64,000 bases of DNA from an uncultured Planctomycetia bacterium (lineage in GTDB: Bacteria > Omnitrophota > Gorgyraeia > 2-02-FULL-51-18), in the NCBI GenBank assembly GCA_964606485.1, contig CAZSGP010000001.1:225085-289084 (forward strand). Direction: 5' to 3'. Position 1 is the stretch's first letter; every line of letters begins with the position of its first letter. A model generated the notes under the pieces. That model saw nothing but the letters and a program-made list of their open reading frames with translations, ran no database searches and was not told the DNA's origin. This document shows positions 1 through 22,233 of this stretch, piece by piece. Made by a program: the position numbers and the translations under genes.

Positions 1-3000
1 TCGAAGTCCGGTTCGAACGGTCCGTGGATTCCAATTATGAACCCGATTTCCGGTTTGGCGAATATCCCGAACTCTGGTTCGCTGTCCTGGACAGTGCCCG
101 ATGATATCACCAACAACGCCTATGTGAAGGTAGACGCTGCATCCGGTCCCGCGGTGAGCACGAAATCTCCCGCACAATTTAAAATCATGGCGCGTTTTGT
201 CATCACGGCTCCCACCGGCGGCGCTGTTCTTCTGGCGGGTCAAGACCAAACGATTTCTTGGAATAAGTGGGGTTCTGCGGCAACCACGGTCAGAATTGAA
301 CTTGCGACCGATGGAAGTGGCAATCCTCCAACCTACAACAAAATTCTTGATTTGAGCGCGCCGGCCGGAACGAGCACAGGCTCTTATAACTGGGCTGTCG
401 ATAACCCTGTGTCAGCAGCCAATAACGTAACGCCCACTGCGCGTCTAAGGATATACGACACAACCGACATTGACAGCGCGGCAACTTCTTCTAGTAATTT
501 CATCATTCGCGCAAGCTTTACGATGAGCCCGCTGATCGGAAGCGTTCCGCTCAAAGTCGGTGACACTTACGACGTGGTTTGGGCTAAAGTCGGTAATATT
601 CCTCAAGTCCTATTGCAGTATTCTCCGTTTAACAACTTTGGTGTCGATGCCCGCAACATTGAAGGTTCTGCGGCGGGCCTTGTGGCGAATGTGGGAGATT
701 CGGGCAAAGGAGATGGGCCTAACACCGCTCGCTTTGTGTGGACGGTACCGGACATCGACCCGGCAGAAGCTGACCATGTTTACTTGCGCGTTTCGGATCC
801 GAACGACTCCGGCGCCAAGAGCGTTTCCAACGAATTTATGATCAAGCCGAAGTTTACCGTAACTTCTCCGAATGGAAATGCGGATCCGAATCTTGCCGAA
901 AAATGGAAAGTAGGTATTTCTTATCCAATTACCTGGACGAGCTCCTCTGCTTTAGTGAATACGCCCACTGTAAAAGTTTCGTACTCCATAACCGGCGGCG
1001 CCTCATGGGTTCCTATTGCTACCGTTAGCAATAACGGGACCCGCAATTGGACGGTTCCGGATGCAATTTCGGAAGACGCTAAAATCCGCGTGGAAGATGC
1101 CAATGACGCCACGGCCTTCGATGATTCCAATGAAAATTTCAAAATCATCTCCAATTTCACTTCGATGGCGCCCAATGGCGGGCAGGTTCTAACGGTGGGC
1201 GACCTCACGCCGATCACATGGGGTTATCAGGGAACGGTGTCGAATGTAGAATTGTCTTACTCCACAGCAGGCTCCGATTTTTCTGCGGCGACTATTTTTG
1301 TTCCGTTTACGCAGGCGAATAATATTTCAACAAATCCGAATAATGGATCTCTGCCGAGCCAATGGACTGTGCCGGATGCGATTGGCTACAACACTAGAAT
1401 CAGAGTGAAGAGCTTTAATGACGACGGATACATTATTTCCGCGAGCGATTTCAGAATTAAAGGTAAGATCGAATTTAACTACGGCCAAGCTCCGCTTTCG
1501 GCCCCCATTTTGAGCGAGCCGGTGCCGATCGGTCAGCCCTACACGATTAAATGGAAAACAACCGGCACTATTCCTAACGTGAAGATTTTATATGATGTGA
1601 ATGACGGCAACGGAGCCGACAATAATCCCGGCACCGGAGACGAATTCTTGGGTGTCATCACAAATTCTGTTGCGAACACCGGCTCCTATGTATGGCCGGC
1701 TGTACCCGACCAAGGAACGGCATTTGCCAAAATTCGTGTGATCGATGCGCGTGTCGCTGAGGCAGACGTAATGGGCGATTCGGCCAAATTCAATATCGTG
1801 GGTAATTTGAGTGTGGTGACTCCAGCCGGCGCTGAAGCGTGGAAAGTGAATACGGCTCAGCAAGTCACATGGCATTGGGGCGGCACGATTCAACGCATTA
1901 AAGTTTCTTACACGACGAATCCAGCGGTGCTGGCATCCGATTCCAACGCTTGGACAACGGTCGAGACTATTGATTACGGCGCCAATAGCGGAAATGGAAA
2001 TAACGGTGCCGATCTTAGAACCTACAACTGGGCAATTCCGGACAGCATTTCACCGACGGTGCGCGTGAAAGTTGAAAATGCGGATGATTCGTCGGTATAC
2101 AGTGTGTCTCAGACCTTCAAAATCGTTGGTTCATTTAGAATCACCGCTCCAAATGGAAATGCGGATGTGACGCTGACCGATCGCTGGGTGACGAACGATG
2201 TATGGAATATTACTTGGGAAACCAACGGTAATATTCCGGCCGTCAAACTTCAATATTCCAATGACAATTTTGTGAGCGATATTCACGTCATCGACAATGC
2301 CGCTCCAAACGTACCCAATGGTTATTCAGGCGCTTATCCCTATGTCAGCAGCTATGCATGGCAAATTCCTGACGTGGTTCTTAAAGATGTCGGAGGCGCA
2401 TACACCGGACCCAATTTGGTGAAGGTCAGAGTGATTGACGCCAATGACGCGGCGGTGACCGATGTCTCCGATGATCCCTTCAAGATTGATTACTACAAAG
2501 TGACGTGGTTGTTGCGCGACTTGTCAACCTTTAAAGTTTTAACGGAATTGGGTGTCAAAGAGGTGAAATCATCAGACGCTAATTTCGTTCAATGGGTCGA
2601 GGCTGGTGTGGCTCAAGAATCTGCTCCCGGCGTATTACCTCCTTATAACCGCATTCAACCAACTCCGGCGGGGAGCTGGCTAGCCACATGGACTAAGACC
2701 GGTTATGGCGATGTGTCTCAGCTTGTGCTCTTAAACAAGAATCAACCGACGCTAGATCCGAAATATGTTATTTTCATGGAAACGACGGCCGTGCACATTT
2801 ATTTGGCCGAATCCAAATACAGCTTTGATCCGGGTAACAGCACGGTGATCCCGGCAATTCCGACTAAACTCGATATTATTGGTTGGCTCTCTCGTGACGG
2901 CGCCATCATCTCGGGTGTGGTGAACGCCAAAGTCGAAATTTACGACGGCACGACGCTAGTTGGAGGCGCGGCTATTCCTCTAGCGAAAGTGTTGGATGCC

Positions 3001-4188
3001 GGCACCGGAGCGGATACAGGCCTTTGGAATGCGAGCCGAACCAACGTAACGATCGCACCAATGAGCTTGCAGGCTGGTAAAACCTATATCGGCAAATGCT
3101 ACATGCAGATTGCAAGCCAAGTCGACGAAGACGTGTGGTATCAAACGCCGTCTGCGTTTGAAATCACCGCGTCCGTGAAACTTGAAGAGGTGAGAGCGAC
3201 CGTTGAGAAAAATATCGATAAACCGCTGTCACAATTCGCCACTGAAATGCAAGCGACTTTGGATAATCAGACGACCACTCTAACATCCAAGTTAGATGCT
3301 CAAACGGTAACTATACAGAGCACTCTGGATGCTCAGACTCAAATTATCACGTCCGCCATCACAGACTTTAATAATAGCGTCGCTAGCGCTATCACGGATC
3401 TCAATACGGCGGCCGATCGAAGCTTGGACGCGGCGGAAAACTTGGAAGACACGGCCAACAAATTTTCATGGAAAGCCGTTGTGGCTCCAAACCCGGCTCT
3501 CACCGGTGACTCGGTGATGTTGCAGGCGCAGGGACCGCCGAATCTCAAGCCGATTGTCAGTGTTTATAACAACACGAACAAGCAGGTTATTGCCGCGGCC
3601 ATTATGGAAGAAGAGTCTTTGCGCCCGGGCAATTACAGCTACACCTTTAAAGCCATGTCCTCAAGCTTCACTCCTGGTCAAGCGTATACGTACATTGTGA
3701 CGGAAGACGTCACGGGTGGTTTGGTGGCCGGTTCCGGATTCGTTGAAAGTATTTCGCTGACTGCCGTTGCCGGCTTGGCTAGCGCCGCACCTGCCGCTGA
3801 AAAAGCAGCCAAAGAAGCTGTGGAAGCCATCAAAGAACTTGAAACCACTATGGCTCGCGGCGGTGATTTGAAGAAAGCCCTTGTGAATTTACAGCGCTCC
3901 GTTGATTCCCTGCCGGATCAAGTCAGCAAGGTGAGCGGAGACACCAAGGGCGTTCGCTCTGCGGTGAACGAAATTTCCACTCGCTTGCAACAGCTCGCCG
4001 GAAACCAAGGGCTCGACTTTACTCAACTTTTTGCAAAAGCATTGGACGAAAATGCTAAAATAGAAGACATTCGCACCCGTTCCGGTGCCATTGTGAATTC
4101 ACTGGAACTCTTGGGGGCGATCGTCGAGAAGAGACTGGGTGGCGGCGACGAGCCGATTGTAGCGACCTTCCTGGAAGCTGCATCTTAA
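1..4188 (+). CDS. Giant secreted/cell-surface protein, 5'-truncated at the window edge. It has >=9 tandem ~90-100 aa Kre9/KNH-like (PF10342-like) beta-domains and a C-terminal coiled-coil region.
   Basis: The ORF is open to position 1 (first Met at 37). A recurring module reads 'F.I...F.ITAP.GG..L..G....ITW.......V.I.YS..G..W..I......W.VPD.IS..A.IRV.D.ND....D.SNE.FKI', with W(T/A)(V/I)PD motifs seen about 9 times. The C-terminal third has heptad-like 'LDAQT' repeats and a Lys/Ala/Glu coiled coil. Confidence 0.6.
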   Translation, partial: SKSGSNGPWIPIMNPISGLANIPNSGSLSWTVPDDITNNAYVKVDAASGPAVSTKSPAQFKIMARFVITAPTGGAVLLAGQDQTISWNKWGSAATTVRIELATDGSGNPPTYNKILDLSAPAGTSTGSYNWAVDNPVSAANNVTPTARLRIYDTTDIDSAATSSSNFIIRASFTMSPLIGSVPLKVGDTYDVVWAKVGNIPQVLLQYSPFNNFGVDARNIEGSAAGLVANVGDSGKGDGPNTARFVWTVPDIDPAEADHVYLRVSDPNDSGAKSVSNEFMIKPKFTVTSPNGNADPNLAEKWKVGISYPITWTSSSALVNTPTVKVSYSITGGASWVPIATVSNNGTRNWTVPDAISEDAKIRVEDANDATAFDDSNENFKIISNFTSMAPNGGQVLTVGDLTPITWGYQGTVSNVELSYSTAGSDFSAATIFVPFTQANNISTNPNNGSLPSQWTVPDAIGYNTRIRVKSFNDDGYIISASDFRIKGKIEFNYGQAPLSAPILSEPVPIGQPYTIKWKTTGTIPNVKILYDVNDGNGADNNPGTGDEFLGVITNSVANTGSYVWPAVPDQGTAFAKIRVIDARVAEADVMGDSAKFNIVGNLSVVTPAGAEAWKVNTAQQVTWHWGGTIQRIKVSYTTNPAVLASDSNAWTTVETIDYGANSGNGNNGADLRTYNWAIPDSISPTVRVKVENADDSSVYSVSQTFKIVGSFRITAPNGNADVTLTDRWVTNDVWNITWETNGNIPAVKLQYSNDNFVSDIHVIDNAAPNVPNGYSGAYPYVSSYAWQIPDVVLKDVGGAYTGPNLVKVRVIDANDAAVTDVSDDPFKIDYYKVTWLLRDLSTFKVLTELGVKEVKSSDANFVQWVEAGVAQESAPGVLPPYNRIQPTPAGSWLATWTKTGYGDVSQLVLLNKNQPTLDPKYVIFMETTAVHIYLAESKYSFDPGNSTVIPAIPTKLDIIGWLSRDGAIISGVVNAKVEIYDGTTLVGGAAIPLAKVLDAGTGADTGLWNASRTNVTIAPMSLQAGKTYIGKCYMQIASQVDEDVWYQTPSAFEITASVKLEEVRATVEKNIDKPLSQFATEMQATLDNQTTTLTSKLDAQTVTIQSTLDAQTQIITSAITDFNNSVASAITDLNTAADRSLDAAENLEDTANKFSWKAVVAPNPALTGDSVMLQAQGPPNLKPIVSVYNNTNKQVIAAAIMEEESLRPGNYSYTFKAMSSSFTPGQAYTYIVTEDVTGGLVAGSGFVESISLTAVAGLASAAPAAEKAAKEAVEAIKELETTMARGGDLKKALVNLQRSVDSLPDQVSKVSGDTKGVRSAVNEISTRLQQLAGNQGLDFTQLFAKALDENAKIEDIRTRSGAIVNSLELLGAIVEKRLGGGDEPIVATFLEAAS

Positions 4189-4213: not shown

Positions 4214-5002
4214 ATGAACGCTCGAAAAATTCTTCTGCTTACTTTATTCACAGCGCTTGTAGCTTCGTGGGCCGCTCACGAAGCTTATTCGGCGAGTGTT
4301 AAAATGAGAGTCGTGGTCGTTAATCCTTCCGATAAAAAAGAGCAAACCAAGTCCGTTCGCACTGAACTGCCGAAGGAAGTGAAGCAGAAAGACATTTTAG
4401 ATGCCGGTGGATTGGACATAGAGTACGATACCGAAAAGGGCGCTTTTTATGCCTCCAAAAATGACATTCCGCTAGCTCCTCTCGAGACTAAAATTTTTGA
4501 AATTGTCATGAACGACGTTTGGATTTGGCCTAAGGAAAACCTCGATTTCTTCCGTGAACAAACCAAAAAAATTGTGGCCAAATTAAAAGACACGTCGTTT
4601 GGCGAGCAGGCTGAACTCATCGCTAAAACCATTTATGGGCGTCTGGATGAAATTGAAACCAATCAGAACGATCAAAATGTTTCGCGTCAGCAGCACGTGG
4701 CGTATTTCCGCGAAGCCAATAAGACCATTGAGTCGGTGAAGGCGGATATCGAGCGACTGCAGAAACTGCTGATCACAGCAGGCGGCACGCCGAATCTCGA
4801 TCTTGTCGAAAACGCTGACGTGAAACTCAAATCCCCCAATACCAAAACGACCTGGATCGTTATCTTTGCCGTGATCTTGTTCGTCGCGATCTTGAGCGGC
4901 ACGTTTTACTTTACGTGGCTCAGGCAGTCCAGTAACTCGGACGCAGTATTTAAAAAAGAAAAAGACGCTTCTTTCGCTGAATTCAAACCCAAAAAAGAAT
5001 AG
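4214..5002 (+). CDS. Hypothetical exported protein with an N-terminal signal peptide and a C-terminal transmembrane anchor.
   Basis: The N-terminus 'MNARKILLLTLFTALVASWAAHEA' looks like a signal peptide. A single hydrophobic segment 'TTWIVIFAVILFVAILSGTFYF' lies near the C-terminus, followed by a Lys-rich tail. There is an 8-bp gap to the downstream epsilon gene. Confidence 0.45.
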   Translation: MNARKILLLTLFTALVASWAAHEAYSASVKMRVVVVNPSDKKEQTKSVRTELPKEVKQKDILDAGGLDIEYDTEKGAFYASKNDIPLAPLETKIFEIVMNDVWIWPKENLDFFREQTKKIVAKLKDTSFGEQAELIAKTIYGRLDEIETNQNDQNVSRQQHVAYFREANKTIESVKADIERLQKLLITAGGTPNLDLVENADVKLKSPNTKTTWIVIFAVILFVAILSGTFYFTWLRQSSNSDAVFKKEKDASFAEFKPKKE

Positions 5003-5009
5003 CGTATAA

Positions 5010-5255
5010 ATGGCGCTGACCCCGATTGAGGTGAAAGTCTTAAGTCCTCAGCGGCTCATTTTTGAAGGGCAAGCAAAGAGCATCATTCTCCCGGGAGAAT
5101 CGGGTGTTTTTGAAATTGCCCCGCATCACAAGCGTTTACTTTCCAGATTATTAGGCGGTTTTGTCATTATTGACAATAAGCGCATGTCGATTAAGCGCGG
5201 TGTAGTCAAGGCAGGCTTAAACAAAGTGACAATTATCGTTGAAGAAGATGATTAA
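5010..5255 (+). CDS. atpC: F-type ATPase epsilon subunit, N-terminal beta-sandwich domain only (81 aa). The C-terminal helical hairpin is absent.
   Basis: 'LTPIEVKVLSPQRLIFEGQAKSIILPGESGVFEIAPHHKRLLSRLLGGFVII' matches the epsilon consensus (LxVVTPE...PG..G..GILP.HAPLLT.L.PG.V.I). The protein stops after ~80 aa, with no helical domain. Confidence 0.7.
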   Translation: MALTPIEVKVLSPQRLIFEGQAKSIILPGESGVFEIAPHHKRLLSRLLGGFVIIDNKRMSIKRGVVKAGLNKVTIIVEEDD

Positions 5256-6804
5256 AAAAAACGCTCCGGTTATATTTATTTTTTTGATGGGGATTGGCCT
5301 TTATGTCAATTCTCTCTGCGGCCCATTTATCTATGACGATCTAGAGCTCGTCCGGAACAACGGCAAACTCCAAAGTTTCCAGGCTCTTTCGCAATCCTTT
5401 AAGCAGGATATTAATTTATCGACGGGCCGGACCGGTTTTTTTTACCGGCCCTTTCTTCAGGTGACTTATGCCTTGGACAGTCATTTTTGGAAGGGAAGGG
5501 TTTATGGGTATCATGCCACGAGCATTGTGCTTCACGCGCTTGCGGCTTTGGCGCTCGCTTCTTTAATTTTCATTCTTTTTGGAGATAAACTCGTCGCGTT
5601 TTTAACAGCTCTTTTGTGGCTCGTGCACCCTGTGCATACCGAAGCTGTTTCTTATATTTCAGGACGCGCCGATCCTCTGGCAGCACTCCTACTTTTGTTG
5701 GCGCTTATTTTTTATGTGAGGGGAGACTATGCACACCGGCTGCGAAATCTTTCCCTGCTCATCATTTTTTATGCGCTTGCACTCCTATCTAAAGAACATA
5801 GCCTTATTTTTTTAGCCCTGATCGCTCTCGTTCATCTTGTTTTTAAGAAGCGAATTCAGTGGCCGGCGCTAATTGCGGTAGCGACACTTTCTCTTTTTTA
5901 CGGTTTTTTACGATTTTCTCAGTTACAGACCTTGCTTTCAAATCCTCTCAATCCCAGTACACTTGCGGAGCGTTTACCCGGTTTTTTTGTGGCAGTTGCT
6001 AAATATTTCAAACTTCTCGCGTGGCCTACGAATCTGCGAATGGAGTATGGCCTAAAAATATTCACATTTGCGGACCCTAGAGCCATAGTGGGGGTTGGTA
6101 TTTTAGCGGCCCTCTTTGCCTCTCTCTATTTTTTAAGAAAAAACCGTGTCTGGGTTTTTGGAATCGGCTGGTTTCTCATCACACTTTTACCGGTATCCAA
6201 TCTTTTTCCCATCAATGCATTTATGGCGGAGCACTGGCTCTATCTGCCCTCAATGGGGCTATGGCTCGCTTTTGCCGGCTTATTTTCAAGGGTGCTCCAG
6301 TCTCGCAAGCGTCTAGTTGCGGCACTCGCTTTGGCTGCACTCGCTTCGATGTATAGCCAGGCGACAATGGCTCAAAACAGTTATTGGAGTGACGCGGTAC
6401 TCTTTTACGAACGCACGTTGAAATTTGAACCCAATAATGCGCGCATGTGCAATAACCTCGCCGGAGTTTACAAAGATAGGGGAGACTTTGAGAGCGCAAA
6501 AACTTTCTACCAAAAAGCAATTACCATTGATCCGAATATTGCCGATGTTTATTTTAATTTGGGGACGATTTACGCTCAGGAGAATGATTTGGGAACAGCC
6601 ATGGATTGTTACCAGAAAACCGTTGAGCTGAATCCCAATTTTGCGCTGGCCTACAACAACATGGGCGCGCTTTACCAGGCGCACGGTCAAAATGAGCTCG
6701 CTTTGCTACAATACGAAAAGGCACTAAAACTCAATCCAAACTACAAGCGAGCCGCTGAAAATCTTTCAAATATTAAAATGAGATTGGGGAAGAGCAATGG
6801 ATAA
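5239..6804 (+). CDS. TMTC/PMT-like GT-C family membrane glycosyltransferase (DUF1736-type) with C-terminal TPR repeats.
   Basis: About 10 predicted TM helices. 'FIYDD' acidic motif in loop 1 and 'HPVHTEAV' motif. The C-terminus has about 4 TPR units ('NNLAGVYKDRGDFESAKTFYQKAITIDPN...'). The start overlaps the atpC stop by 17 nt and the stop overlaps the atpE start by 8 nt. Confidence 0.7.
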   Translation: MKKMIKKNAPVIFIFLMGIGLYVNSLCGPFIYDDLELVRNNGKLQSFQALSQSFKQDINLSTGRTGFFYRPFLQVTYALDSHFWKGRVYGYHATSIVLHALAALALASLIFILFGDKLVAFLTALLWLVHPVHTEAVSYISGRADPLAALLLLLALIFYVRGDYAHRLRNLSLLIIFYALALLSKEHSLIFLALIALVHLVFKKRIQWPALIAVATLSLFYGFLRFSQLQTLLSNPLNPSTLAERLPGFFVAVAKYFKLLAWPTNLRMEYGLKIFTFADPRAIVGVGILAALFASLYFLRKNRVWVFGIGWFLITLLPVSNLFPINAFMAEHWLYLPSMGLWLAFAGLFSRVLQSRKRLVAALALAALASMYSQATMAQNSYWSDAVLFYERTLKFEPNNARMCNNLAGVYKDRGDFESAKTFYQKAITIDPNIADVYFNLGTIYAQENDLGTAMDCYQKTVELNPNFALAYNNMGALYQAHGQNELALLQYEKALKLNPNYKRAAENLSNIKMRLGKSNG

Positions 6805-7015
6805 AAATGTCGCTATTATTTTGGTCTTCACGCTTTGCATTTTGGGGCCAACCGCCATTATTGCCGCGGCAGGGCATGCCAGTATTTCAGCTCTCGGCCG
6901 TAATCCCTCGGCCGCTCCCAAGATCTTTACCGCTATGACGATGATGCTCATCTTTGGCGGTATGATTTCCATTGTGGCTCTGCTTGTTCTTTTTCAGCTT
7001 TACGCTACCAAATAA
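6797..7015 (+). CDS. atpE: F-type ATPase subunit c-like proteolipid (72 aa helical hairpin). It apparently lacks the conserved ion-binding Glu/Asp in helix 2.
   Basis: Two hydrophobic helices joined by the polar loop 'ALGRNPSAAPK' (compare the conserved c-subunit 'ARQP(E/D)' loop). Helix 1 is Ala/Gly-rich ('IIAAAGHASISALG'). It sits directly upstream of the b/delta gene. No acidic residue occurs anywhere in helix 2 ('IFTAMTMMLIFGGMISIVALLVLFQLYA'). Confidence 0.6.
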   Translation: MDKNVAIILVFTLCILGPTAIIAAAGHASISALGRNPSAAPKIFTAMTMMLIFGGMISIVALLVLFQLYATK

Positions 7016-7074
7016 AGACAGCCCCCCTCCTTGCTTTTTTTGTTAATTTTTGTTAAAATTTAGATAAAATTTAA

Positions 7075-7151
7075 TGTCATTGCGAGGAGCTTTTGCGACG
7101 AAGCAATCTAGATTTTAGAGCGAGATTGCTTCGCTGACGCTCGCAATGACA
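7075..7151. repeat. Copy 1 of a ~77-bp palindromic intergenic repeat (REP/MITE-like double-stem hairpin).
   Basis: tgtcattgcgag...gaagcaatct..agattgcttc...ctcgcaatgaca. The outer 12-bp and inner ~10-bp inverted repeats are shared with copies at ~22234 and ~25578. Coordinates are +/-2 nt. Confidence 0.75.
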
Positions 7152-7165
7152 AATAGGGGAGTTCG

Positions 7166-7894
7166 ATGCTATTTTTAGTTCTAGTGGTTATTCAGCTCGT
7201 CATCTTCGGTGTCCTGATTTTTCTCCTTAAAAACGTCCTCACCCGCAATGTCCGCACGGCGACCGCGCACCTGAATGAGTTGAACCAAGACTACACTCAA
7301 AAAATGGACGAAGCCAATAAGCGCATGCACGAAGCGGAAAAATTTTACGATGACGCGATTTTGCGATCCAAGACCGATGCCGAACGAGCAAAAATGGAAA
7401 TTTTAAAAGAGGCGCGGTCGCAAGATGAGCAGATTGTAGGGGATGCGCGAAAACAAAGCACCGAAATTTTGGAGCAGGCGCGCCGCGCGCGGGATCTCAT
7501 GATTGAAGAGATTGAACAGAAAATTGAAGTCCGCGCTGTTGAAAGGGCGAGCGAGTTTCTGGCTCAGATCCTTCCTTCTGAAATCAGTATGGATATGCAC
7601 ACTAAATGGACCGAGCAAATCCTTAAAAAAGGATTTTCGGATTTGTCGCGCATGAATTTTCCGGACGGGGAGCTCAAAGTAAAAATTATTTCGGCTTACG
7701 AATTGACAGCGGATCAAAAATCTCAAATCGAAGAAATTCTCCGCACCGCGCTCAAGCGTGAATTTTCTCTGGAAACAGCGTCCGACGTCAGTTTGGTTGC
7801 CGGTATCCAGGTAACAGTGGCCAGTATCGTGATTGACGGAACACTGAAATTTAAGATCCGGGAGATAGCCCGCCGTGCCCAACGAACTGAATAA
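7166..7894 (+). CDS. atpFH: Compact F-type ATPase b-delta fusion stator subunit. It has an N-terminal TM helix, a b-like coiled coil and a delta/OSCP C-terminal domain.
   Basis: N-terminal TM 'LFLVLVVIQLVIFGVLIFLL'. A charged coiled coil typical of subunit b. The C-terminus 'LVAGIQVTVASIVIDGTLKFKIREIARRA' matches the delta C-terminal consensus (LLGGV.V.IGD.VIDGSVRGRLERLA). At 242 aa it is too short to contain a delta N-terminal domain. Confidence 0.7.
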   Translation: MLFLVLVVIQLVIFGVLIFLLKNVLTRNVRTATAHLNELNQDYTQKMDEANKRMHEAEKFYDDAILRSKTDAERAKMEILKEARSQDEQIVGDARKQSTEILEQARRARDLMIEEIEQKIEVRAVERASEFLAQILPSEISMDMHTKWTEQILKKGFSDLSRMNFPDGELKVKIISAYELTADQKSQIEEILRTALKREFSLETASDVSLVAGIQVTVASIVIDGTLKFKIREIARRAQRTE

Positions 7895-8028
7895 TTGGCC
7901 GAAAAAGCCCATCTGCTGCGTTGCTCTCTGCGCTTCCTCAGTCGACGTACGTAAGCGTACGCCTTCTTCGGTCGCTTGGTCGCGCCTTGCATATAGGCTT
8001 TTTGGACCAATTATTGAAGACGGTGAAA

Positions 8029-9501
8029 ATGGCTCCTGATACGACTACGGCGCAGTTTGAAATGCGCGAAGTAGGGCATTTAAAATCCATTAAGCGCTTT
8101 ATTGCTGTGACCGACGACTTGAACTCCTGTATCAATGGCCAGCTCGTGGAGTTTGAAAAAGGAGCGCGCGGCATTGTCATGGGATTTACACACGACAAAA
8201 TTCAAATTTTAGTTCTAGGGCCCACCCAAGGAATCCGTTTGGGGGACGAAATTTATAATCGCGGCGAGTCCTTCAATCTCCCAGTGGGTGAAAAATTTAA
8301 AGGCCGCGTGGTGACCGCTCTCTGCGAGCCAGCGGACGGGCTCGGACCCATTCATGCAGATGACCGGTACCCGGTTTTTCAAGACGCACCCGGCATTATT
8401 GACCGCGAACAGCTCACCGAAACCATGGAAACCGGAACATTTGCGCTCGATGCCGGTATTCCTATTGCCAAAGGACAGCGCCAGCTTTTAATCGGCGACC
8501 GTGGAACGGGAAAAACAACAATCGGCATTGACGCCATTCTCAATCAAAAGGGAAAAGGTGTTATCTGTATTTATTGCGTGATTGGGAAACCGTATTCGAG
8601 CCTTGTCAAAACCTTAGGTCTCCTTCATGAACAGGGGGCGATGGAGCACACGATTGTCGTGAGTGCGGTCGCATCGACCTCTCCTGGTGAGCAGTACATC
8701 GCGCCGTACACTGCGGCGATGCTGGGCGAATATTTCATGAAATCCGGTCGTGATGTGCTTTGCATTTTTGACGATCTCACGAAGCACGCGTGGGTTTACC
8801 GACAAATTTCACTGCTCCTCGAGCGACCTCCGGGTCGCGAAGCGTATCCGGGTGACATTTTTTATATTCACTCTCAACTTTTAGAGCGCGCCGGGCGATT
8901 CACCAAAGATTTAAAGGGCGGTTCGATGACATTTTTACCGATTGTCGAAGTGCTGCAGGGGGACGTGACGGGTTACATCCCCACCAATATTATTTCCATC
9001 ACCGACGGGCAAACGTATTTTTCGACGAACCTTTATAACAAAGGCCACAAGCCCCCGATCGATTTCGGTTTGTCGGTGTCGCGTATTGGAAATAAGGGAC
9101 AGTGGTCGGCCATGAAAGACGTGTCGAAGAGTCTCCGCTTGGAATACCTTCAGTACCAGGAAATGCTTCAGATGACTCAGCTTCGCTCCGGAGGCCTTTC
9201 AAAAGACTCGGAGGCGCGTTTAAAGCGCGGGGAAGCGCTGACGCAGCTTTTAGTGCAGACCAAAAATAAACCGGTTTCTATTCCAGAACAAGTGTTTTTT
9301 TTAATTGCGCTCGGAAAAGGGGTTCTTGACCCGCTTCCTGCGGCACAGATCAAAAAATTTAAAGTGGAAATTTCCGACTTCGTCGATAAAAAAGACCCTG
9401 CAATTTTAAAAGAGCTCAACGAAACAAAAAAACTAACGGACGCAAACAAAGAAAAAATCGTGAACTGTTTAAAGCAGTATTTTGAAAGCGTGGGAGGCTA
9501 A
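8029..9501 (+). CDS. atpA: F-type ATPase alpha subunit.
   Basis: P-loop 'GDRGTGKTTIGIDAILNQKG' and overall F1-alpha architecture. The internal Met at 8029 was chosen because the upstream 36 codons look non-native. Confidence 0.9.
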   Translation: MAPDTTTAQFEMREVGHLKSIKRFIAVTDDLNSCINGQLVEFEKGARGIVMGFTHDKIQILVLGPTQGIRLGDEIYNRGESFNLPVGEKFKGRVVTALCEPADGLGPIHADDRYPVFQDAPGIIDREQLTETMETGTFALDAGIPIAKGQRQLLIGDRGTGKTTIGIDAILNQKGKGVICIYCVIGKPYSSLVKTLGLLHEQGAMEHTIVVSAVASTSPGEQYIAPYTAAMLGEYFMKSGRDVLCIFDDLTKHAWVYRQISLLLERPPGREAYPGDIFYIHSQLLERAGRFTKDLKGGSMTFLPIVEVLQGDVTGYIPTNIISITDGQTYFSTNLYNKGHKPPIDFGLSVSRIGNKGQWSAMKDVSKSLRLEYLQYQEMLQMTQLRSGGLSKDSEARLKRGEALTQLLVQTKNKPVSIPEQVFFLIALGKGVLDPLPAAQIKKFKVEISDFVDKKDPAILKELNETKKLTDANKEKIVNCLKQYFESVGG

Positions 9502-10358
9502 TGCTCCCAGCAACGTTCATCAAGCGGCAGATTGATTTCAATAAACAATTCCGCTCGCTCTTGGACGTGATGAAACTTGTGGCCGTATCCCAGTACCATA
9601 TTTTGGAAAAAAAGCTTCAGTATTTTGATTTGTTCGGTGAAGTGCTCACAGAGTTTTTTGATTCGATTGATGTGAGCCGTGTGAATCACCCTTTTTTAAA
9701 CGGGGGAGACAAGCCGGTAGGGGTTTTGGCGATCACGTCCGACGGGGGACTTTTAGGTGGCATGAACATGCAGGTCATTGCAAAGGCGGTGGATATTTTG
9801 TCGCGTCAGCCAGGAAAGCTGATCATCGTGGGGGAACGTGGACAGATTTATGCGCAGGGTTTTGGAATGTCCTTCACCTACTTTACCGGGATCATCGACA
9901 ACGAGCGCTACGCGCAGGCGATGACGGTGCGGGATTATGTGACGCAGGAAATTTTAAATGGAAATTTAGGGGGATTAAAAGTGGTGTTTCCGAGAGCGTT
10001 GTCGCTCGTGATGAATAAAATTGAAGTCGAGACGCTCGTACCCTTTACGCGTAAAGACGCCGAGGGTGCCGCGCCTAAAACTGGCGGAAGTCTAGCGCAA
10101 GTGATTTTAGAAACGCGCCCTGAAGACATTGCGGAATACTTGGTTTACTTGTACGTAGGGGAGCGGCTATACGAAGTGTTTGGCATGGCGCGACTCGCCG
10201 AACAAGCGGCACGTTTTGTGCACTTGGAAGAAAGCTGTCAAAAAATTCAGGATATGAACAATAAATTGCTCCTTCAGTATTTTAAACGACGTCATGAAAT
10301 TATCGATTCCAATATGCGCGAACTTTTTTCCGCAAAGAAAGCTTATGCCGATGGCTGA
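9501..10358 (+). CDS. atpG: F-type ATPase gamma subunit.
   Basis: 285 aa, gamma-like N- and C-terminal helices ('...LYVGERLYEVFGMARLAEQAARFVHLEES...'). It overlaps the alpha stop by 1 nt and the beta start by 8-14 nt. Confidence 0.8.
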   Translation: MLPATFIKRQIDFNKQFRSLLDVMKLVAVSQYHILEKKLQYFDLFGEVLTEFFDSIDVSRVNHPFLNGGDKPVGVLAITSDGGLLGGMNMQVIAKAVDILSRQPGKLIIVGERGQIYAQGFGMSFTYFTGIIDNERYAQAMTVRDYVTQEILNGNLGGLKVVFPRALSLVMNKIEVETLVPFTRKDAEGAAPKTGGSLAQVILETRPEDIAEYLVYLYVGERLYEVFGMARLAEQAARFVHLEESCQKIQDMNNKLLLQYFKRRHEIIDSNMRELFSAKKAYADG

Positions 10359-11757
10359 GGATAAGAAAATTTTAACGCCGGGAAAAGTAGTGGGTGTTCA
10401 AGGTCCCGTGGTGGACGTGCGGTTTACCCTTCAAAAGGACGTGCCCGATATTTACAACGTCATTCATGTTCAGTCCATGGACAACCGAAAAGTAACGCTT
10501 GAAGTCGTGGAGCATTTGCCTGGAAATTTAGCGCGCTGTATCGCCATCGAATCCACTCAAAATCTTCAGCGTTTTGCCGTGGGCCAACCGTCTGGAAAAC
10601 CCGTTGAAATTCCGGTCGGGGACTGTCTTTATACGCGCTGCGTGAATGTGCTCGGCCAGCCCATCGACAAAATGGGTCCGATTGAGTCTAATCTTTACAT
10701 GCCTATCCGCCGGCCGGAGTCGGGCACGCGAGTTCCGGACTTTAGTAAACAAAAGCGCCGTGGCGAAGAAGTGCTAGAAACGGGTATTAAAATTATCGAT
10801 CTGCTTTACCCGCTCGTCAAAGGAACAAAAACGGGGATCTTAGGGGGAGCGGGTCTTGGAAAAAGCGTTATCACGCTCGAAGTCATTCACCACGTCGTGC
10901 AAAAACATCAGGGTTCGTGCGTTTTTGCGGGTATCGGAGAGCGCTTGCGCGAAGGAAACGAACTTTTTTATGAACTGCGTGAACATGATCTTCACACCAA
11001 AACCATGCTCGTGTTTGGACAGATGAATGACCCGCCCGGCGCGCGTTTCGGTGTGGCTATGACCGGAATCACCATGGCTGAAGCCGTGCAAAAACAAAAC
11101 AAAGACGTGATCTTCTTTGCCGACAACGTGTTTCGTTTTATTCAAGCCGGAGCCGAAATTTCGACCCTGCTTGGCCGCGTGCCGTCCGAAACAGGGTATC
11201 AACCGACACTCATTTCCGAGTCGAGCGAATTTCATGAACGCATCCGCGAAGGGCAGGGCACCGGCGGATCGATCACCTCTATTGAAGCCGTTTACGTTCC
11301 CGCCGACGACATGACCGACCCTGCCGTCGTGGCCATCTTCTCATTTTTAAATTCTTTAATGGTGCTTTCCCGCGAACGCGTGCAGATGGGACTTTACCCA
11401 GCGATTGACCCGCTTCAATCGTCCTCGTCTAATTTAGATCCGGACGTGGTGGGCCAGCGCCATTACGACGCCTCCCAAGAAGTTATGCGCGTGTTCCAAA
11501 AATACGAAGAACTCCGCCGCATCGTTATGGTGATCGGAATCGACGAATTGTCCAAAGCCGACCGTACGATTTACGAACGCGCCCGGAAAATGCAATTTTT
11601 TCTGACTCAGCCTTTCGCCGTAGCAGAACGCTACACCGGCAAAAAGGGCGAGCACGTCCCCATCCGCAACACGCTAGATGGCTGTGAAAGAATATTATCT
11701 GGTAAAATGGACCGCAAACCTGAGCAAGAGTTTTACATGATCGGATCATTGGTTTGA
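10351..11757 (+). CDS. atpD: F-type ATPase beta subunit (catalytic).
   Basis: Walker A 'GGAGLGKSV', 'VFAGIGERLREGNELF' and DELS motif 'DELSKADR'. The start is at MAEDKK (10351) or MPMAEDKK (10345). Confidence 0.9.
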   Translation: MAEDKKILTPGKVVGVQGPVVDVRFTLQKDVPDIYNVIHVQSMDNRKVTLEVVEHLPGNLARCIAIESTQNLQRFAVGQPSGKPVEIPVGDCLYTRCVNVLGQPIDKMGPIESNLYMPIRRPESGTRVPDFSKQKRRGEEVLETGIKIIDLLYPLVKGTKTGILGGAGLGKSVITLEVIHHVVQKHQGSCVFAGIGERLREGNELFYELREHDLHTKTMLVFGQMNDPPGARFGVAMTGITMAEAVQKQNKDVIFFADNVFRFIQAGAEISTLLGRVPSETGYQPTLISESSEFHERIREGQGTGGSITSIEAVYVPADDMTDPAVVAIFSFLNSLMVLSRERVQMGLYPAIDPLQSSSSNLDPDVVGQRHYDASQEVMRVFQKYEELRRIVMVIGIDELSKADRTIYERARKMQFFLTQPFAVAERYTGKKGEHVPIRNTLDGCERILSGKMDRKPEQEFYMIGSLV

Positions 11758-11776: not shown

Positions 11777-12232
11777 ATGCTTCTAGGAGAACGCTTAGTC
11801 AGACTCGGTAAAATTACCGAAGATCAATTGAATGAAGCGCTGACAGAGCAAAAAAATACGAGTGAGTTTTTGGGGAATATTTTGCTCCGGCGTGCTTGGA
11901 TTCGTGAAGACGACTTAACCGAAGTTTTATCCGAGCAGTTCGAGATGCCTTTTATGAAACTCAAGAACGAGTATCTTGACTGGAATTTGATTTTGACATT
12001 TTCGTCAACACTTGTCGTAGAACACAAATGCGTCCCCTTTCGAAAAGACGAAAAAGGGTACACGGTTGCGATCACCAATCCTTTAGACGCGATGGCTATC
12101 AGTGAGGCAGAGAAGCTGGCGCAAAGGGGAGACCGGGTTTCGATTGTTTTGGTGACGCCCAGTCAGATGCATACGGTGATTCGTGAGTATCAAAAACGTT
12201 TATCCGATAAAATAAAAGGACTATTGGGGTAA
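11777..12232 (+). CDS. Stand-alone MshEN/T2SSE_N domain protein (GspE N-terminal domain, a likely c-di-GMP-binding module).
   Basis: 'LGERLVRLGKITEDQLNEALTEQ' fits the MshEN motif RLG..L(V/I)..G.I....L..AL..Q. A good RBS lies 20 nt after the atpD stop. Confidence 0.65.
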   Translation: MLLGERLVRLGKITEDQLNEALTEQKNTSEFLGNILLRRAWIREDDLTEVLSEQFEMPFMKLKNEYLDWNLILTFSSTLVVEHKCVPFRKDEKGYTVAITNPLDAMAISEAEKLAQRGDRVSIVLVTPSQMHTVIREYQKRLSDKIKGLLG

Positions 12233-12238
12233 AAGCGC

Positions 12239-14404
12239 GTGATTACTAAAATTGACACCACGCTCGTCAAACTTCTCGTCGAAAAAAATTTAATCGACCA
12301 GGAAACACTTTCGCCCTTTATCGAAGAAGCGGGAAAATCCAAAGACAATCTTTATGTGCTCCTTTTGCGCTCCGGAAAATTTCCAGAAGAGCGTTTGCTT
12401 TTAGGGCTTTCAGAGGCAATGAAAGTTCCGCTGGTGGAGCTTGGGTCTAAGCAGCCGGACACCACGGTGATTGAAAAAGTACCGCTTAAGATTGCCGAGT
12501 ACTATAAACTCGTTCCGCTCAAAATCGAAAATCGAAGGCTCACTATTGCCATTTCAGCGCCCTTTGATGTCCGCACCCAAGATGACATTCACACTCATTT
12601 GGGCTTTGATCTGGACCTGGTTTTAGCCAGAGAGAAAGATGTCTTAGACGCCATTAAACGTTTCTACGGATTCGCGACCGGAACCATCAATGAAATGATC
12701 GCGTCCGGTTCAGATATTGCGACAACCCTGCCGGACCGCGCTTTTGAAGCCGTGGAAAACATTGAAAAGCTCGCCGGTGACGCATCGATTGCAAAGCTTG
12801 TGAATCAGATTATTCTAGAGGCATTTCGAAAACGCGCGACCGATATTCACTTAGAGCCTTACCGCGGAAAAGTAAAACTACGCTACCGCATTGACGGCAC
12901 GCTGTACAACGCGAACGTTCCGCCTGAAATTGGCCGTTTTATTTTGCCTATTTTGTCGCGCATTAAAATCATGTCGAATTTAAACATCGTCGAAAAACGT
13001 CTCCCGCAAGACGGGCGCGCGATTGTAAAAATTGAAGACACTCAGCTTGACCTTCGCGTGTCCTCGATCCCCACGCCTTACGGCGAAAGTGTGGTGGTGA
13101 GAATGCTCCCCATGAACCGCGTGATCAGTCTCACTCAACTCGGGCTCGGCAACCGGGAACTCAATTTATTTCAGACGATGATTAAAAAACCACACGGAAT
13201 TATTTTTATCACGGGTCCGACCGGCAGCGGAAAAAGCACGACTCTTTACGCGTGTCTCAATCAGCTCAACTCCGACGACCGGAAAATTATCACGATTGAA
13301 GATCCGGTTGAATACGAAATGGAGGGCGTCACTCAAATTCAAGTGGCCGGCAACATTGGCCTTGATTTTGCAAAAGGTTTGCGCAGTATCCTGCGTCATG
13401 ACCCAGACGTCATCATGGTGGGAGAGGTTCGCGATCTCGAGACTGCTGAAACAGCCATCCGCGTCGCACTCACCGGACATCTTGTTTTTTCAACGCTTCA
13501 CACCAACGATTCGGCAAGCTCTGTTACGCGTTTAGTGGATATTGGTGTTGAGCCGTATCTTGTTTCCTCGAGCGTTGAAGCGTTTATTGCTCAGCGACTT
13601 GTGCGAACGATTTGTTCGCATTGTAAACAAGAAGACAAGACGATGACGCAGTACGAAGCCAAAAAATTAATCGCCAAAGAAACGGACACCAAAGTAGACG
13701 ATGTGCGGCTTTTTTATGGCAAAGGATGCAATCAGTGCAATAACACTGGCTTCTGGGGACGCGTGGCCATTTATGAAATTCTTCTCATGAACGACAAGTT
13801 GAGAGATCTTGTGATGCAGAAAGCGTCGGCGGAAGAAATTAAAAAACTAGCCGTGGCTCAAGGCATGCGCACGCTTCGCCAGGATGGTTGGGAAAAAGTG
13901 TTGGCCGGTGTCACGACGCCGGAAGAAATTTTAAAAGTAGCCCCGGCAGATAAGGCAGGGGAGATTCTCTCGCCCGAACTTAGATCTGAAGAACCCGTTT
14001 CCACGAAGGAAGCAGCGGAAAATATTATTTCCCGTTACAACGATCGCCGTCAATTTGAACGCTTAAAAGACACGGTGAATATTCGTTACCGGATTATCAA
14101 ATCCAAAGACCCGATTCGCAAAATGGCTCCGAGCTCCGAAGAGTACACCGTCACGAAAGACGTGTCTGCGGGCGGACTACTGCTTGTCACGCGAGAAAGT
14201 ATTCCGGTCGGATCGATACTCGAGCTAAAAGTAGAATTGCCCGACGGACCCCCAGCTATTGAATGTTTAGCGAAGGTGATGCGCGAAGAGGAGCTCGTCA
14301 AAGAAAATATGTTTCAGCTCGGCATTTGCTTTTTAGATCTCACGGGTTCTCAGCGAGCGCGTTTGTTCAAGTATGTTGAGACGGAAGGCGGAGTGGCCGC
14401 ATGA
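12239..14404 (+). CDS. gspE: Type II secretion / type IV pilus assembly ATPase (GspE/PilB family) with a C-terminal PilZ domain.
   Basis: T2SSE_N N-terminal domain. Walker A 'GPTGSGKST', Walker B 'DPDVIMVGEVRD', His-box 'LVFSTLHTNDSAS' and tetracysteine 'CSHCK...CNQCNNTG'. C-terminal extension with PilZ motifs 'DRRQFER' and 'DVSAGGLLL'. Probable GTG start. Confidence 0.9.
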   Translation: MITKIDTTLVKLLVEKNLIDQETLSPFIEEAGKSKDNLYVLLLRSGKFPEERLLLGLSEAMKVPLVELGSKQPDTTVIEKVPLKIAEYYKLVPLKIENRRLTIAISAPFDVRTQDDIHTHLGFDLDLVLAREKDVLDAIKRFYGFATGTINEMIASGSDIATTLPDRAFEAVENIEKLAGDASIAKLVNQIILEAFRKRATDIHLEPYRGKVKLRYRIDGTLYNANVPPEIGRFILPILSRIKIMSNLNIVEKRLPQDGRAIVKIEDTQLDLRVSSIPTPYGESVVVRMLPMNRVISLTQLGLGNRELNLFQTMIKKPHGIIFITGPTGSGKSTTLYACLNQLNSDDRKIITIEDPVEYEMEGVTQIQVAGNIGLDFAKGLRSILRHDPDVIMVGEVRDLETAETAIRVALTGHLVFSTLHTNDSASSVTRLVDIGVEPYLVSSSVEAFIAQRLVRTICSHCKQEDKTMTQYEAKKLIAKETDTKVDDVRLFYGKGCNQCNNTGFWGRVAIYEILLMNDKLRDLVMQKASAEEIKKLAVAQGMRTLRQDGWEKVLAGVTTPEEILKVAPADKAGEILSPELRSEEPVSTKEAAENIISRYNDRRQFERLKDTVNIRYRIIKSKDPIRKMAPSSEEYTVTKDVSAGGLLLVTRESIPVGSILELKVELPDGPPAIECLAKVMREEELVKENMFQLGICFLDLTGSQRARLFKYVETEGGVAA

Positions 14405-15654
14405 TTTATTCGTACCGGGCTAAAAAAGGGCCCAAAGAGCTCGTAGAAGGAACGATAGAAGCGCTGACTGTCGAGGATGCGATTGAGCGGCTCAGCGAAA
14501 AAGGGCTTTTGCCAATCGACGTTCAAGAAGCTAAAGTTCAAGCGGTCGAAGCGCCGAGTCCCCGCGCATCGACGAAGCCTTTACCGCGCAGTCAGCCGGG
14601 CCGCATTACACTTTTTGGAGGGATACGGTCGTCCGAGATCACTGTTCTTTCCCGGCAATTGGCGAGCCTGCTCAAAGCGGGCGTGCCTATTTTGCAAGGT
14701 CTTTGGATTTTGTCCGAACAAACTCAAAATCCGAAACTTAAAAAAGTTTTGACGCACATTCAAGAAGAGGTTAATAACGGTAAATCTCTCTCAGCGATTT
14801 TTTCGCTCTACCCAAAATATTTTCCTCCTATTTACATTGCCATGATTCGCACCGGAGAAGATAGCGGCACGCTTGACTCGGCCCTTTCTCGAATTGCCGA
14901 ATACCGCCGCAAACAGGAAGAAATGCGCTCGCGTGTTCTTTCGGCGATGGCGTACCCGATTCTCATGGCCATCACCGGAGCGGGAACCGTGATATTTATG
15001 CTCACGTTCGTGATTCCAAAGCTAACCAAACTATTTGCAAATTTAGGCCAGAGTCTGCCGGCTCCCACGCGCATTCTGATGACGATGAGTGAATTTTTAA
15101 AACAGCCGGCATTTTGGGGTGTGATCGGCATTCTTGTTGTGGCATTTAATTTATGGGTAAGACTTGCTCCGCAAATGGCACGCGCGGCGTGGAGCGCATT
15201 TAGTTTGAAATTGCCCATCATTAAAGGATTTGTGATGAAATCCGAGATGGCGCGTTTTTCAAGAACCATGGAGCTTCTTTTAAAATCGGGCGTCACGGTT
15301 TTAAGAGCCATTGAAATTACGACGCCGGTTTTAAAGAATGTAATTTTGCGCGCTGAATTTTCAAAGGCCTACCAATCCATCACCGGGGGAGGGTCGCTCG
15401 GAAAATCTTTAAAGGAATCCAAAATAGTGCCGATGTTTGTTTCAAACCTGATCTCGATTGGCGAAGAATCCGGAAAATTAGACGACACAATGAGCGAAAT
15501 CGCGGACTTATATGAACGCGAAACCGACGAGGCGATCCGCGTGATGACCTCGCTGATGGAACCGCTGATGATTTTAGTGATGGGCGGCATTGTGGGTTTT
15601 ATTGTGATTGCGATGATGTTGCCGATGTTTGAATTGAATATGGCAGTTAAATGA
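14401..15654 (+). CDS. gspF: T2SS/T4P platform protein (GspF/PilC family).
   Basis: Duplicated GspF domain architecture with three TM segments. The 4-nt start/stop overlap with gspE is typical. Confidence 0.9.
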   Translation: MIYSYRAKKGPKELVEGTIEALTVEDAIERLSEKGLLPIDVQEAKVQAVEAPSPRASTKPLPRSQPGRITLFGGIRSSEITVLSRQLASLLKAGVPILQGLWILSEQTQNPKLKKVLTHIQEEVNNGKSLSAIFSLYPKYFPPIYIAMIRTGEDSGTLDSALSRIAEYRRKQEEMRSRVLSAMAYPILMAITGAGTVIFMLTFVIPKLTKLFANLGQSLPAPTRILMTMSEFLKQPAFWGVIGILVVAFNLWVRLAPQMARAAWSAFSLKLPIIKGFVMKSEMARFSRTMELLLKSGVTVLRAIEITTPVLKNVILRAEFSKAYQSITGGGSLGKSLKESKIVPMFVSNLISIGEESGKLDDTMSEIADLYERETDEAIRVMTSLMEPLMILVMGGIVGFIVIAMMLPMFELNMAVK

Positions 15655-16535
15655 ATGCAAAACAATCGCAAAACGTCGACGGGTCCTGCCGGCGGTTGTC
15701 CGTTCGGAACCACCTGCGGTGGCTTCCGAGACGGACGCCTACCGCCGTCACCCCTCGACGTTTCGCGATTTTAAGCATTCTCGCTCTATCGATCTGCTGG
15801 TGTTTGGGGGTAGGGGCAGCCGACTGGCAAGAAGTCAAAGGCGATCACTTCATCGTGTATTACATGCAGAACGAGAAGTTCGCCAAAGACACAGCGCATA
15901 AAGCCGAGCAGTATTATGTGAGCATTGCCGACGAACTGGGGTATCCGCGCTACTCCAATTTTTGGCAGTGGGATAACCGGGTTAAAATTTATATTTACCC
16001 AACCCAAGCGGATTATTTAAAGGGGTCGGGCGAGCCAGCGTGGTCGAAGGGCTTCGCGCGCTACAAAACGAAGGACATTTTGACGTATGAGTGGAGCGAC
16101 AGTTTTTTAGAAGCTTTGCTCCCGCATGAAATTACCCATTTAATTTTTAGGGATTTTGTTGGATTCAAAGGCGAAATTCCTCTCTGGATGGACGAGGGGG
16201 TTGCGCAGTGGCAGGAGCCTAAGAAACGGGAAGCTGCCAAAGAAATTGCGAGATATCTTTTAAAGAACCAAAAAGCATTTACGTTTGAATCGCTGATGCA
16301 AATGGACATTCGCGGTTCAAAAAATGAAGAAGAAGTTTACAATTTTTACATGCAATCGGTGACGATTGTGGATTTTATGGTCAAGCGCTACGGCGCGCAA
16401 AGTTTTACCGAGTTCTGCCGGCAGTTGCGGGATGGGAAATCGCTGAATGAAGCTTTGCGGTTTGCTTACCCTGCATCGGGCGGGAATATTGAAAATTTGG
16501 AGAAAGAATGGAAAAAAGTCGTGATGGAGGAATGA
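15651..16535 (+). CDS. Membrane-anchored HExxH-motif protein (putative zinc metallopeptidase-like) embedded in the secretion/pilus operon.
   Basis: Arg-rich N-terminus, then one TM ('FAILSILALSICWCLGVGAA'). 'LPHEITHLIF' HExxH motif. ATGA overlap with the gspF stop. Confidence 0.5.
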   Translation: MNAKQSQNVDGSCRRLSVRNHLRWLPRRTPTAVTPRRFAILSILALSICWCLGVGAADWQEVKGDHFIVYYMQNEKFAKDTAHKAEQYYVSIADELGYPRYSNFWQWDNRVKIYIYPTQADYLKGSGEPAWSKGFARYKTKDILTYEWSDSFLEALLPHEITHLIFRDFVGFKGEIPLWMDEGVAQWQEPKKREAAKEIARYLLKNQKAFTFESLMQMDIRGSKNEEEVYNFYMQSVTIVDFMVKRYGAQSFTEFCRQLRDGKSLNEALRFAYPASGGNIENLEKEWKKVVMEE

Positions 16536-17916: not shown

Positions 17917-17919
17917 GGC

Positions 17920-18933: not shown

Positions 18934-18937
18934 TCGC

Positions 18938-22182: not shown

Positions 22183-22233
22183 AATAGAAGTTAATTTACT
22201 ATTTTTAAGCATTCTTGTCAAACGGTTGGCGAT

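Follow-up and report, generated by a model that had tools for sequence, protein, structure and literature searches.

F-type ATPases encoded beside type IVa pilus (T4aP) genes have already been reported from the phylum Omnitrophota. Seymour et al. (2023, Nat Microbiol, PMC10066038) flagged such loci as 'symbiotic' or non-respiratory F-ATPases; their α subunits fell outside the respiratory clade and they were located within 10 kb of T4aP genes in 57 of 66 contigs. The classification was derived from α/β trees only and carries the label 'type 2/3'. Here we analyze an F-ATPase-like operon present on the + strand (positions 5010-11757) of a 64,000-nt stretch of contig CAZSGP010000001.1 (assembly GCA_964606485.1, positions 225,085-289,084, forward strand); the whole stretch is called the window below. 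It has in common with the published loci the phylum, recognition through α and β, and adjacency to PilB and PilC: F-type α and β genes are found within 10 kb of genes for PilB, PilC, pilins and PilMNO (12239-20943). Judged by gene proximity, the operon is a member of the set of Seymour et al.; its α subunit was compared with known families by the ranking of hidden Markov model and PDB scores.

The main text and supplements of Seymour et al. do not deal with subunit a, subunit c or its carboxylate, with the truncations of ε, δ and α, with a lysine finger, or with the membrane protein p262 and the upstream giant open reading frame (ORF) described below. A 2026 preprint surveying 176 complete genomes recorded F-type α/β in 125 of them and a recognisable γ in 30 only, read the divergent γ as 'incomplete F1Fo', and noted V/A-type ATPases in most Gorgyraeia. 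Type II secretion-like and pilZ genes near giant genes were described by West-Roberts et al. (2023), with the ATPase unmentioned. The existence of these loci is therefore already published, while their anatomy at the level of subunits and the link to p262 and the giant gene were not found in the literature searched; nor did the papers searched contain anything relevant on F-ATPases without subunit a or on c rings free of the carboxylate.

The analysis revealed that subunit a is missing from the window operon and from all 80 related loci studied in detail, that the ion-binding position of subunit c is variable in the family, and that the catalytic site of β is intact. The reading we favor, with a probability of roughly 0.55, is an ATP-driven mechanical role at the cell surface, linked to the giant protein and to the pilus-like system.

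Subunits retained and lost

An initial annotation of this DNA had described seven ORFs as an F-ATPase-like operon. All seven are present and co-directional on the + strand, in the order ε, GT-C glycosyltransferase with tetratricopeptide repeats (TPRs), c, b/δ, α, γ, β, and Pfam and NCBIfam profile searches of the window ORFs confirmed their identities. The operon and its surroundings contain the following features.

1-4188, + strand: 3' part of a giant surface-protein ORF; frame 1 is open without a stop and continues past the left edge of the window
4214-5002, + strand: p262, a membrane-anchor module of unassigned family, 262 aa
5010-5255, + strand: ε, N-terminal β-sandwich only, 81 aa; ATP-synt_DE_N (PF02823), E 6e-13, residues 7-78
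5248-6804, + strand: GT-C glycosyltransferase with C-terminal TPRs, 518 aa; membrane part without a Pfam match
6797-7015, + strand: c-like subunit, 72 aa; ATP-synt_C (PF00137), 23.8 bits, slightly below the 24-bit cutoff
7075-7151, + strand: long, stable, imperfect hairpin between c and b/δ; inverted repeats of 12 + 11 nt, RNA fold
7166-7894, + strand: b/δ fusion, 242 aa; C-terminal part of OSCP, E 9e-13; weak ATP-synt_B
8029-9501, + strand: α subunit, 490 aa; atpA, 528 bits, cutoff 484
9501-10358, + strand: γ subunit, divergent, 285 aa; ATP-synt (PF00231), E 1e-35
10351-11757, + strand: β subunit, 468 aa; atpD, 551 bits, cutoff 463
11777-12232, + strand: small MshEN-domain protein of the cyclic di-GMP (c-di-GMP)-binding type; PF05157; NF053729 c-di-GMP motif, E 8.5e-18
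12239-14404, + strand: PilB/GspE-type ATPase with MshEN and C-terminal PilZ; T2SSE, E 2e-129
14401-15654, + strand: PilC/GspF platform protein; T2SSF, E 7e-65
16508-20943, + strand: pseudopilin and assembly genes (GspG-like major pilin, N-methyl minor pilins, J-like, K-like, PilM-PilN fusion, PilO); Pfam T2SSG, N_methyl, T2SSJ, T2SSK_1st, PilM_2+PilN, PilO

Relatives were collected by a scan for the c-like gene, with one genome taken per species. Such genes were found in 295 species genomes, and 80 loci were fetched for detailed study. Nearly all of these are titled Omnitrophota, with some other labels such as uncultured Planctomycetia; among named relatives, Omnitrophica RIFCSPHIGHO2_02_FULL_51_18 is nearest to the window.

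Rotary F-ATPases are defined by the coupling of an ion path, formed by subunit a and the c ring, to catalysis. The search for subunit a covered the 64-kb window and ±10 kb around each of the 80 related loci. Window ORFs with at least four predicted transmembrane (TM) helices have Pfam identities as CDF, DUF2231, MauE, RND, P-type ATPase or acyltransferase proteins, the glycosyltransferase being the sole exception, and the other larger ORFs are unrelated to subunit a. The E. coli AtpB sequence, validated as ATP-synt_A at 191 bits, was used as a phmmer --max probe against six-frame fragments of the window and of the 80 loci, and the best match had an E value of 0.16. Only eight ORFs with at least four TM helices were present within ±10 kb of the 80 loci; all eight are on the opposite strand and most overlap mapped genes. 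The absence of atpB from the window, as noted in the initial annotation, was thus borne out, and no subunit a with its essential Arg and ion half-channels was detected there or within ±10 kb in the related loci. Over this range, loss of subunit a (80 of the 80 loci) is a conserved trait of the family.

In working ion-driven c rings the carboxylate of the second TM helix is essentially fixed. Profile alignment with a solved c subunit (9itj_H) placed Gly55 of the window protein opposite the essential Glu, so that the conserved Glu/Asp of canonical enzymes is missing, and neither TM helix contains any acidic residue. As judged from its sequence, the window c subunit would be unable to bind ions at the canonical site. 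Among 81 species-level loci this position is occupied by E (32), Q (28), A (9), T (5) and, in the rest, S, G or V, while in the 120 closest database relatives it is A, G, T or S in nearly all cases. The cytoplasmic loop LGRNPS-APK, which contacts γ and ε, and Gln67 are invariant in the family, and the window loop reads GRNPSAAPK. A variable carboxylate site next to an invariant rotor-contacting loop indicates that selection acts on assembly of the rotor and not on ion binding.

The catalytic head is well preserved. The Walker A Lys, the Glu and Arg of GER-REGN, the Walker B Asp and DELS..DR of β are invariant across 60 loci, and both α and β exceed the curated cutoffs listed above, as expected of a catalytic α3β3 with a complete β site. 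The best PDB matches of α are bacterial F1 α subunits (430-477 bits); β matches F1 β at 440-482 bits and the M. mobile G1 β at 334 bits. The α arginine finger, however, is replaced by Lys in the window (K341), where ...NKGHKPPIDFGLSVSR aligned opposite ...YSGIRPAINVGLSVSR of a solved α. The same position in the family is K in 49, R in 17 and M in 3 of 69 sequences, and a cross-table revealed no association between this residue and the one at position 55 of c.

Several parts that join head, stalk and rotor are reduced. The ε subunit has 74-87 aa in 78 of 78 family members and lacks the C-terminal inhibitory helices. The b/δ protein (236-250 aa in 75 loci) consists of an N-terminal TM helix, a coiled coil and the C-terminal domain of δ (OSCP); it matches only positions 100-170 of the 172 of the OSCP profile, and the profile that fits its whole length best is TIGR03321, the b model of N-ATPases (E 1e-11). 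A full peripheral stalk, in which the δ N-terminal domain sits on the N-terminal helix of α, is not encoded: this δ domain is absent, and α begins about 13 residues later than Bacillus α, without that helix. The γ subunit scores 90.9 bits against TIGR01146 (cutoff 194) and is conserved in 64 loci.

Gene order, junctions and conserved neighbors

Some gene starts were revised. ATG 5248 is a likelier start of the glycosyltransferase than TTG 5239. The start of α was set at ATG 8029, homologues having their N-termini about 10 residues ahead of FE(V/M)REVG, and that of β is ATG 10351. With these starts four of the six junctions overlap: ε/glycosyltransferase and glycosyltransferase/c by 8 nt each (the latter as ATGGATAA), α/γ by 1 nt and γ/β by 8 nt. 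The genes had been called tightly coupled, which is correct for these four and not for c to b/δ and b/δ to α, where gaps of 150 nt and 134 nt (counted to ATG 8029) were found. The intergenic region between c and b/δ (7016-7165) has a predicted RNA fold of -46.7 kcal/mol (z = -4.4), and its hairpin has no further copy across the window. It may be an element of mRNA processing or stability that tunes expression of the many-copy c subunit relative to the others. A scan of the operon for promoters and terminators gave no excess over shuffled sequences.

When the window proteins were mapped onto the 80 loci, as the initial annotation had proposed for related metagenome-assembled genomes (MAGs), a single order was recovered: giant ORF/p262–ε–c–b/δ–α–γ–β–(MshEN)–PilB–PilC. 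Median intergenic gaps along p262–ε–c–b/δ–α–γ–β are 16, 3, 52, -11, 6 and -14 nt. All six ATPase genes are present in 56 of the 80 loci, and many of the others are short contigs. The position of ε at the head of the operon was therefore described correctly, and it is the norm of the family rather than an oddity. The conserved partners on either side (p262 anchor, upstream giant ORF, downstream PilB/PilC) had been overlooked.

Some loci deviate from this order. Two loci from MAGs named 'bacterium ELA405/ELA441' (L044, 6703-13408, and L046) have the order α-like, α-like, ε, c, b/δ, γ, β, PilB, PilC, with two upstream α paralogs 48% identical to the window α and none between b/δ and γ. Small insertions, differing between lineages, occur at the junctions of the module. 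In L041 (1304-1738) a 144-aa ORF that looks like a four-helix bundle by reading of its sequence is present between ε and c, and in L030 (7794-9741) two extra ORFs, one of vWA-like appearance, separate p262 from ε. Two full sets of giant ORF, p262, ATPase and PilB were found in each of two MAGs (JAQURC01 and CAYJSE01), which suggests one motor per giant protein.

A p262 gene was found in 71 of the 80 loci. In 30 of the 71 it makes up the last ~240 residues of a longer ORF (600 aa or more), and many of these ORFs exceed 3,000 aa and continue beyond the 10-kb flank. The remaining 41 are stand-alone genes, and a large ORF usually ends directly before them where enough upstream DNA is available; such upstream ORFs reach about 2,900 aa before leaving the flank. 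The giant ORF of the window, which carries Kre9/KNH-like Ig repeats (PF10342), extends to at least 2683 aa on a matching Logan contig. In the predicted model of p262 (pLDDT 88.6), a signal peptide is accompanied by a β-sandwich, a bundle of three helices and a single TM helix with a short tail on the cytoplasmic side; the TM helix and tail are unusually conserved and rich in invariant residues. Family and fold searches with p262 gave no match indicating function. A profile search returned 961 cluster representatives, in which the module stands alone, in tandem or at the C-terminus of giant proteins. Many of these relatives (P0307, P0309, P0312 and others) are 410-690 aa long with two or three tandem ectodomains of β-sandwich plus helical bundle; the tandem copies suggest that the ectodomain is a repeatable extracellular unit.

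Downstream of β the association with pilus-type genes is regular. PilB follows β within 700 nt in 50 of 51 loci (482 nt in the window, counted from the end of β), PilC is adjacent to PilB in 44 of 45, and an MshEN gene is present between β and PilB in many of the 80 loci. A Peptidase_MA_2 family protein, unusual in a pilus operon, is encoded in the window at 15651-16535, between PilC and the major pseudopilin. Directly past the pilus genes, on the - strand (20948-22239), are genes for a TPR protein and for a peptidyl-prolyl isomerase of the cyclophilin type; a conserved isomerase also accompanies the giant-gene secretion loci of West-Roberts et al. (2023), where it belongs to the Rotamase_2 type.

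The remainder of the window contains genes of other kinds. A 691-aa protein at 26556-28631 has a C-terminal autotransporter β-domain (E 1e-68). Positions 34944-62169 hold an integrase gene (34944-35858) followed by a metal-resistance island with outer-membrane efflux proteins at 36300, 43155 and 50428, RND pumps at 38347-41499 and 53329-56727, a CDF transporter at 41909, and three HMBD-containing proteins: a multicopper oxidase (44446), a CusB-like adaptor (52005) and a P-type ATPase (60058). The integrase and island are probably a mobile acquisition.

Possible function and alternatives

Absence of subunit a, a variable ion site and loss of the δ N-terminal domain, the α N-terminal helix and the ε C-terminal domain together make ion-coupled ATP synthesis by this complex very unlikely, as far as gene content and residues can tell. 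The initial annotation had proposed a machine derived from F1Fo that serves some purpose other than chemiosmotic synthesis; Gly55 of the window c subunit and the loss of subunit a in all 80 loci strengthen that proposal.

The complex would consist of α3β3γε, a c ring and a b/δ stalk, having lost subunit a and with it the need for an ion-binding ring. ATP would be hydrolysed at the intact β sites, and the rotor of γ, ε and the c ring would be turned or strained against b/δ with no ion crossing the membrane. Loss of the inhibitory domain of ε would fit a motor that only hydrolyses ATP, and hydrolysis is likely to be slow owing to the Lys finger of α. Within the membrane, work could be handed to the single TM helix of p262, or to the helix of b, and so to the anchor of a giant secreted protein; it could perhaps also be passed to the neighboring PilB/PilC pilus-like apparatus, which would be under c-di-GMP control. 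Such ATP-driven rotation might serve to move, tense or deploy a surface structure for attachment or predation. If this is correct, the family offers a concrete and purifiable candidate for the power source behind the giant surface proteins and pilus-like apparatus of Omnitrophota nanobacteria. The locus is reportedly present in Velamenicoccus archaeovorus, a predator that has been grown in enrichment culture. In a bolder version the carboxylate-free c ring is itself a transmembrane rotor that transmits torque through the p262 helix to the giant extracellular protein, acting as a winch or drill on a micrometre-scale adhesin during predation. We regard this as rather improbable; if true, it would be the first known F-type motor to send mechanical work, not ions, across a membrane.

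Three observations weigh against a mechanical role. The c-ring Glu is kept by 40% of the family (32 of 81), and ion binding is therefore possible in some lineages. The α finger is Lys in 71% of sequences and Met in three loci, so that ATPase turnover may be very low; mutants of the F1 arginine finger are known, and slower catalysis is the expected effect of Lys. Finally, the pilus genes and the giant ORF may be neighbors of the module for reasons of shared regulation, with no physical link between the products.

It is also conceivable, though unlikely, that the complex is an ATPase for assembly or secretion, namely an F1 tethered to the membrane, in which α3β3γ, similarly to FliI6–FliJ, unfolds, loads or exports the giant protein or pilins, and the c ring and b/δ are a mere dock with no rotation in the membrane. 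In favor of this, the module always neighbors the gene for a very large exported protein and a PilB/PilC system, α and β have a common origin with FliI/SctN (second-tier NCBIfam matches), and productive torque is hard to picture where a membrane stator of the subunit-a type is missing. However, the invariant c loop together with the conserved γ and ε N-terminal domain indicates that the connection to the rotor is under selection, and a c ring would be a costly anchor where the helix of b suffices. Moreover, a dedicated ATPase, PilB, is already encoded, and the signal peptides or TM anchors of the giant protein and p262 are of an ordinary kind that fits Sec export.

If subunit a were encoded at some other place in the genome, the complex could be an ordinary ion-coupled F-ATPase or ATP synthase, which would account for the atpA and atpD scores of α and β and for the Glu kept in 32 of 81 c subunits. 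We consider it highly unlikely. In the window the ion site of c is Gly and both TM helices are free of acidic residues, and in 60% of the family the site is Q, A, T, S, G or V; no subunit a was detected within ±10 kb in 80 loci; the δ, α and ε domains named above are missing and the α finger is not Arg in 75% of sequences; and published trees set the family apart from respiratory F-ATPases of the same phylum.

The initial annotation also implied that the glycosyltransferase, which it reported as a 521-aa TMTC-like GT-C/TPR protein, takes the place of subunit a as membrane partner of the c ring. Its position is indeed the usual one of atpB, it is translationally coupled to ε and c, and no other multi-pass membrane protein is encoded in the operon. 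By fold and motifs it is a true GT-C/TPR enzyme, with 518 aa as its likelier length: it has the GT-C membrane fold, a DD motif after the first TM helix (D30 and D31) that is invariant in 35 sequences, and C-terminal TPRs (TPR_1, E 3e-27, residues 400-500) in addition to this acidic motif. These features are shared with TMTC/PMT-type GT-C enzymes; in contrast to them, the window protein is below the PMT_2 cutoff, with no match, and no DUF1736 domain was detected in it, whereas four of five full-length homologues (39-43% identical) score 27.6-33.3 against PMT_2 (cutoff 26.1). A cryptic subunit-a domain, which had been named as a possible alternative, was not found in this GT-C fold by the AtpB search described above. 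None of the 77 related loci holding both ε and c has a gene of this family between them; ε there abuts c, and weak matches were seen solely in two loci, downstream of β. The family is a very large one of Omnitrophota 'TPR proteins' (40-44% identical), of which a single contig can carry several paralogs in unrelated contexts, and other lineages carry other genes at the same junctions. A replacement for subunit a is thus largely refuted by the comparative data, and we give it hardly any credence. By comparison of the loci the gene is a lineage-specific insertion, and its product probably glycosylates exported neighbors and is not part of the motor; in this lineage the exported partners of the module would then be glycosylated.

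A decaying remnant of an atp operon, suggested by the absence of subunit a and of several domains and by the missing carboxylate and Arg finger, is just as hard to credit, given six ATPase genes in 56 of 80 loci, catalytic and rotor-interface residues invariant across 60-81 species, overlapping start and stop codons, a spread over 295 species and two copies in some MAGs.

Comparison with known systems

The retained and lost parts are best seen against canonical F1Fo (atpIBEFHAGDC). The α, β, γ, ε, c and b/δ proteins are true homologues of its subunits, with α and β nearest to Bacillus-type F1 (430-482 bits), and the core order c–b–δ–α–γ–β is retained. The window differs from the canonical enzyme in having no subunit a, a lost or variable carboxylate, ε in front and without its C-terminal domain, b and δ fused, the δ N-terminal domain and α N-terminal helix missing, and an Arg finger that is mostly Lys. 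Since c ring, stalk and head are all kept, the family can be regarded as a natural experiment in what a c ring is for when no ions are moved. These features also explain an annotation puzzle in complete Omnitrophota genomes, where α and β are present and γ and a 'complete F1Fo' are missing.

N-ATPases, described by Dibrova et al. (2010, PMC2881411), have operons with subunit a, AtpQ and AtpR, and a Na+-binding c subunit. The window resembles them in its long b (~245 aa) with a δ-like C-terminus, in having no separate δ gene and in the run c–b–α–γ. The long b prompted us to consider membership; the alt_F1F0 models, however, scored far below cutoff for α (491, cutoff 750), β (499, cutoff 752), γ (35, cutoff 282) and b (45, cutoff 225), and the extra small membrane genes and subunit a are missing, so that membership was rejected.

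The F1-like ATPases of Mycoplasma, namely the gliding G1-ATPase of M. mobile and the MIB-MIP-associated ATPase, which requires a β-like Walker A lysine (PMC3369863, PMC11864180, PMC12994834), had been named as a precedent by the initial annotation. As regards function the comparison is reasonable. The Type 2/3 F1-like X0 systems also have α, β, γ and ε without subunit a and are genetically tied to surface machinery; ATP hydrolysis for work outside the cytoplasm has been proposed or shown for them, and is proposed here. As regards membership it does not hold: models MMOB1660/1670 and MSC_0619/0618 gave α scores of 397 (cutoff 600) and 293 (cutoff 520) and β scores of 415 (cutoff 850) and 372 (cutoff 570), far under the cutoffs and lower than those of canonical atpA and atpD, and Fo parts are retained here. 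Furthermore, the Mycoplasma clusters (PMC3369863) comprise seven genes with unrelated membrane proteins and neither c nor b/δ, while the window keeps c and b/δ and has the single-pass p262 as partner. The Omnitrophota family thus extends the Mycoplasma F1-like precedent to an envelope of the Gram-negative type, with a membrane part that is more similar to Fo.

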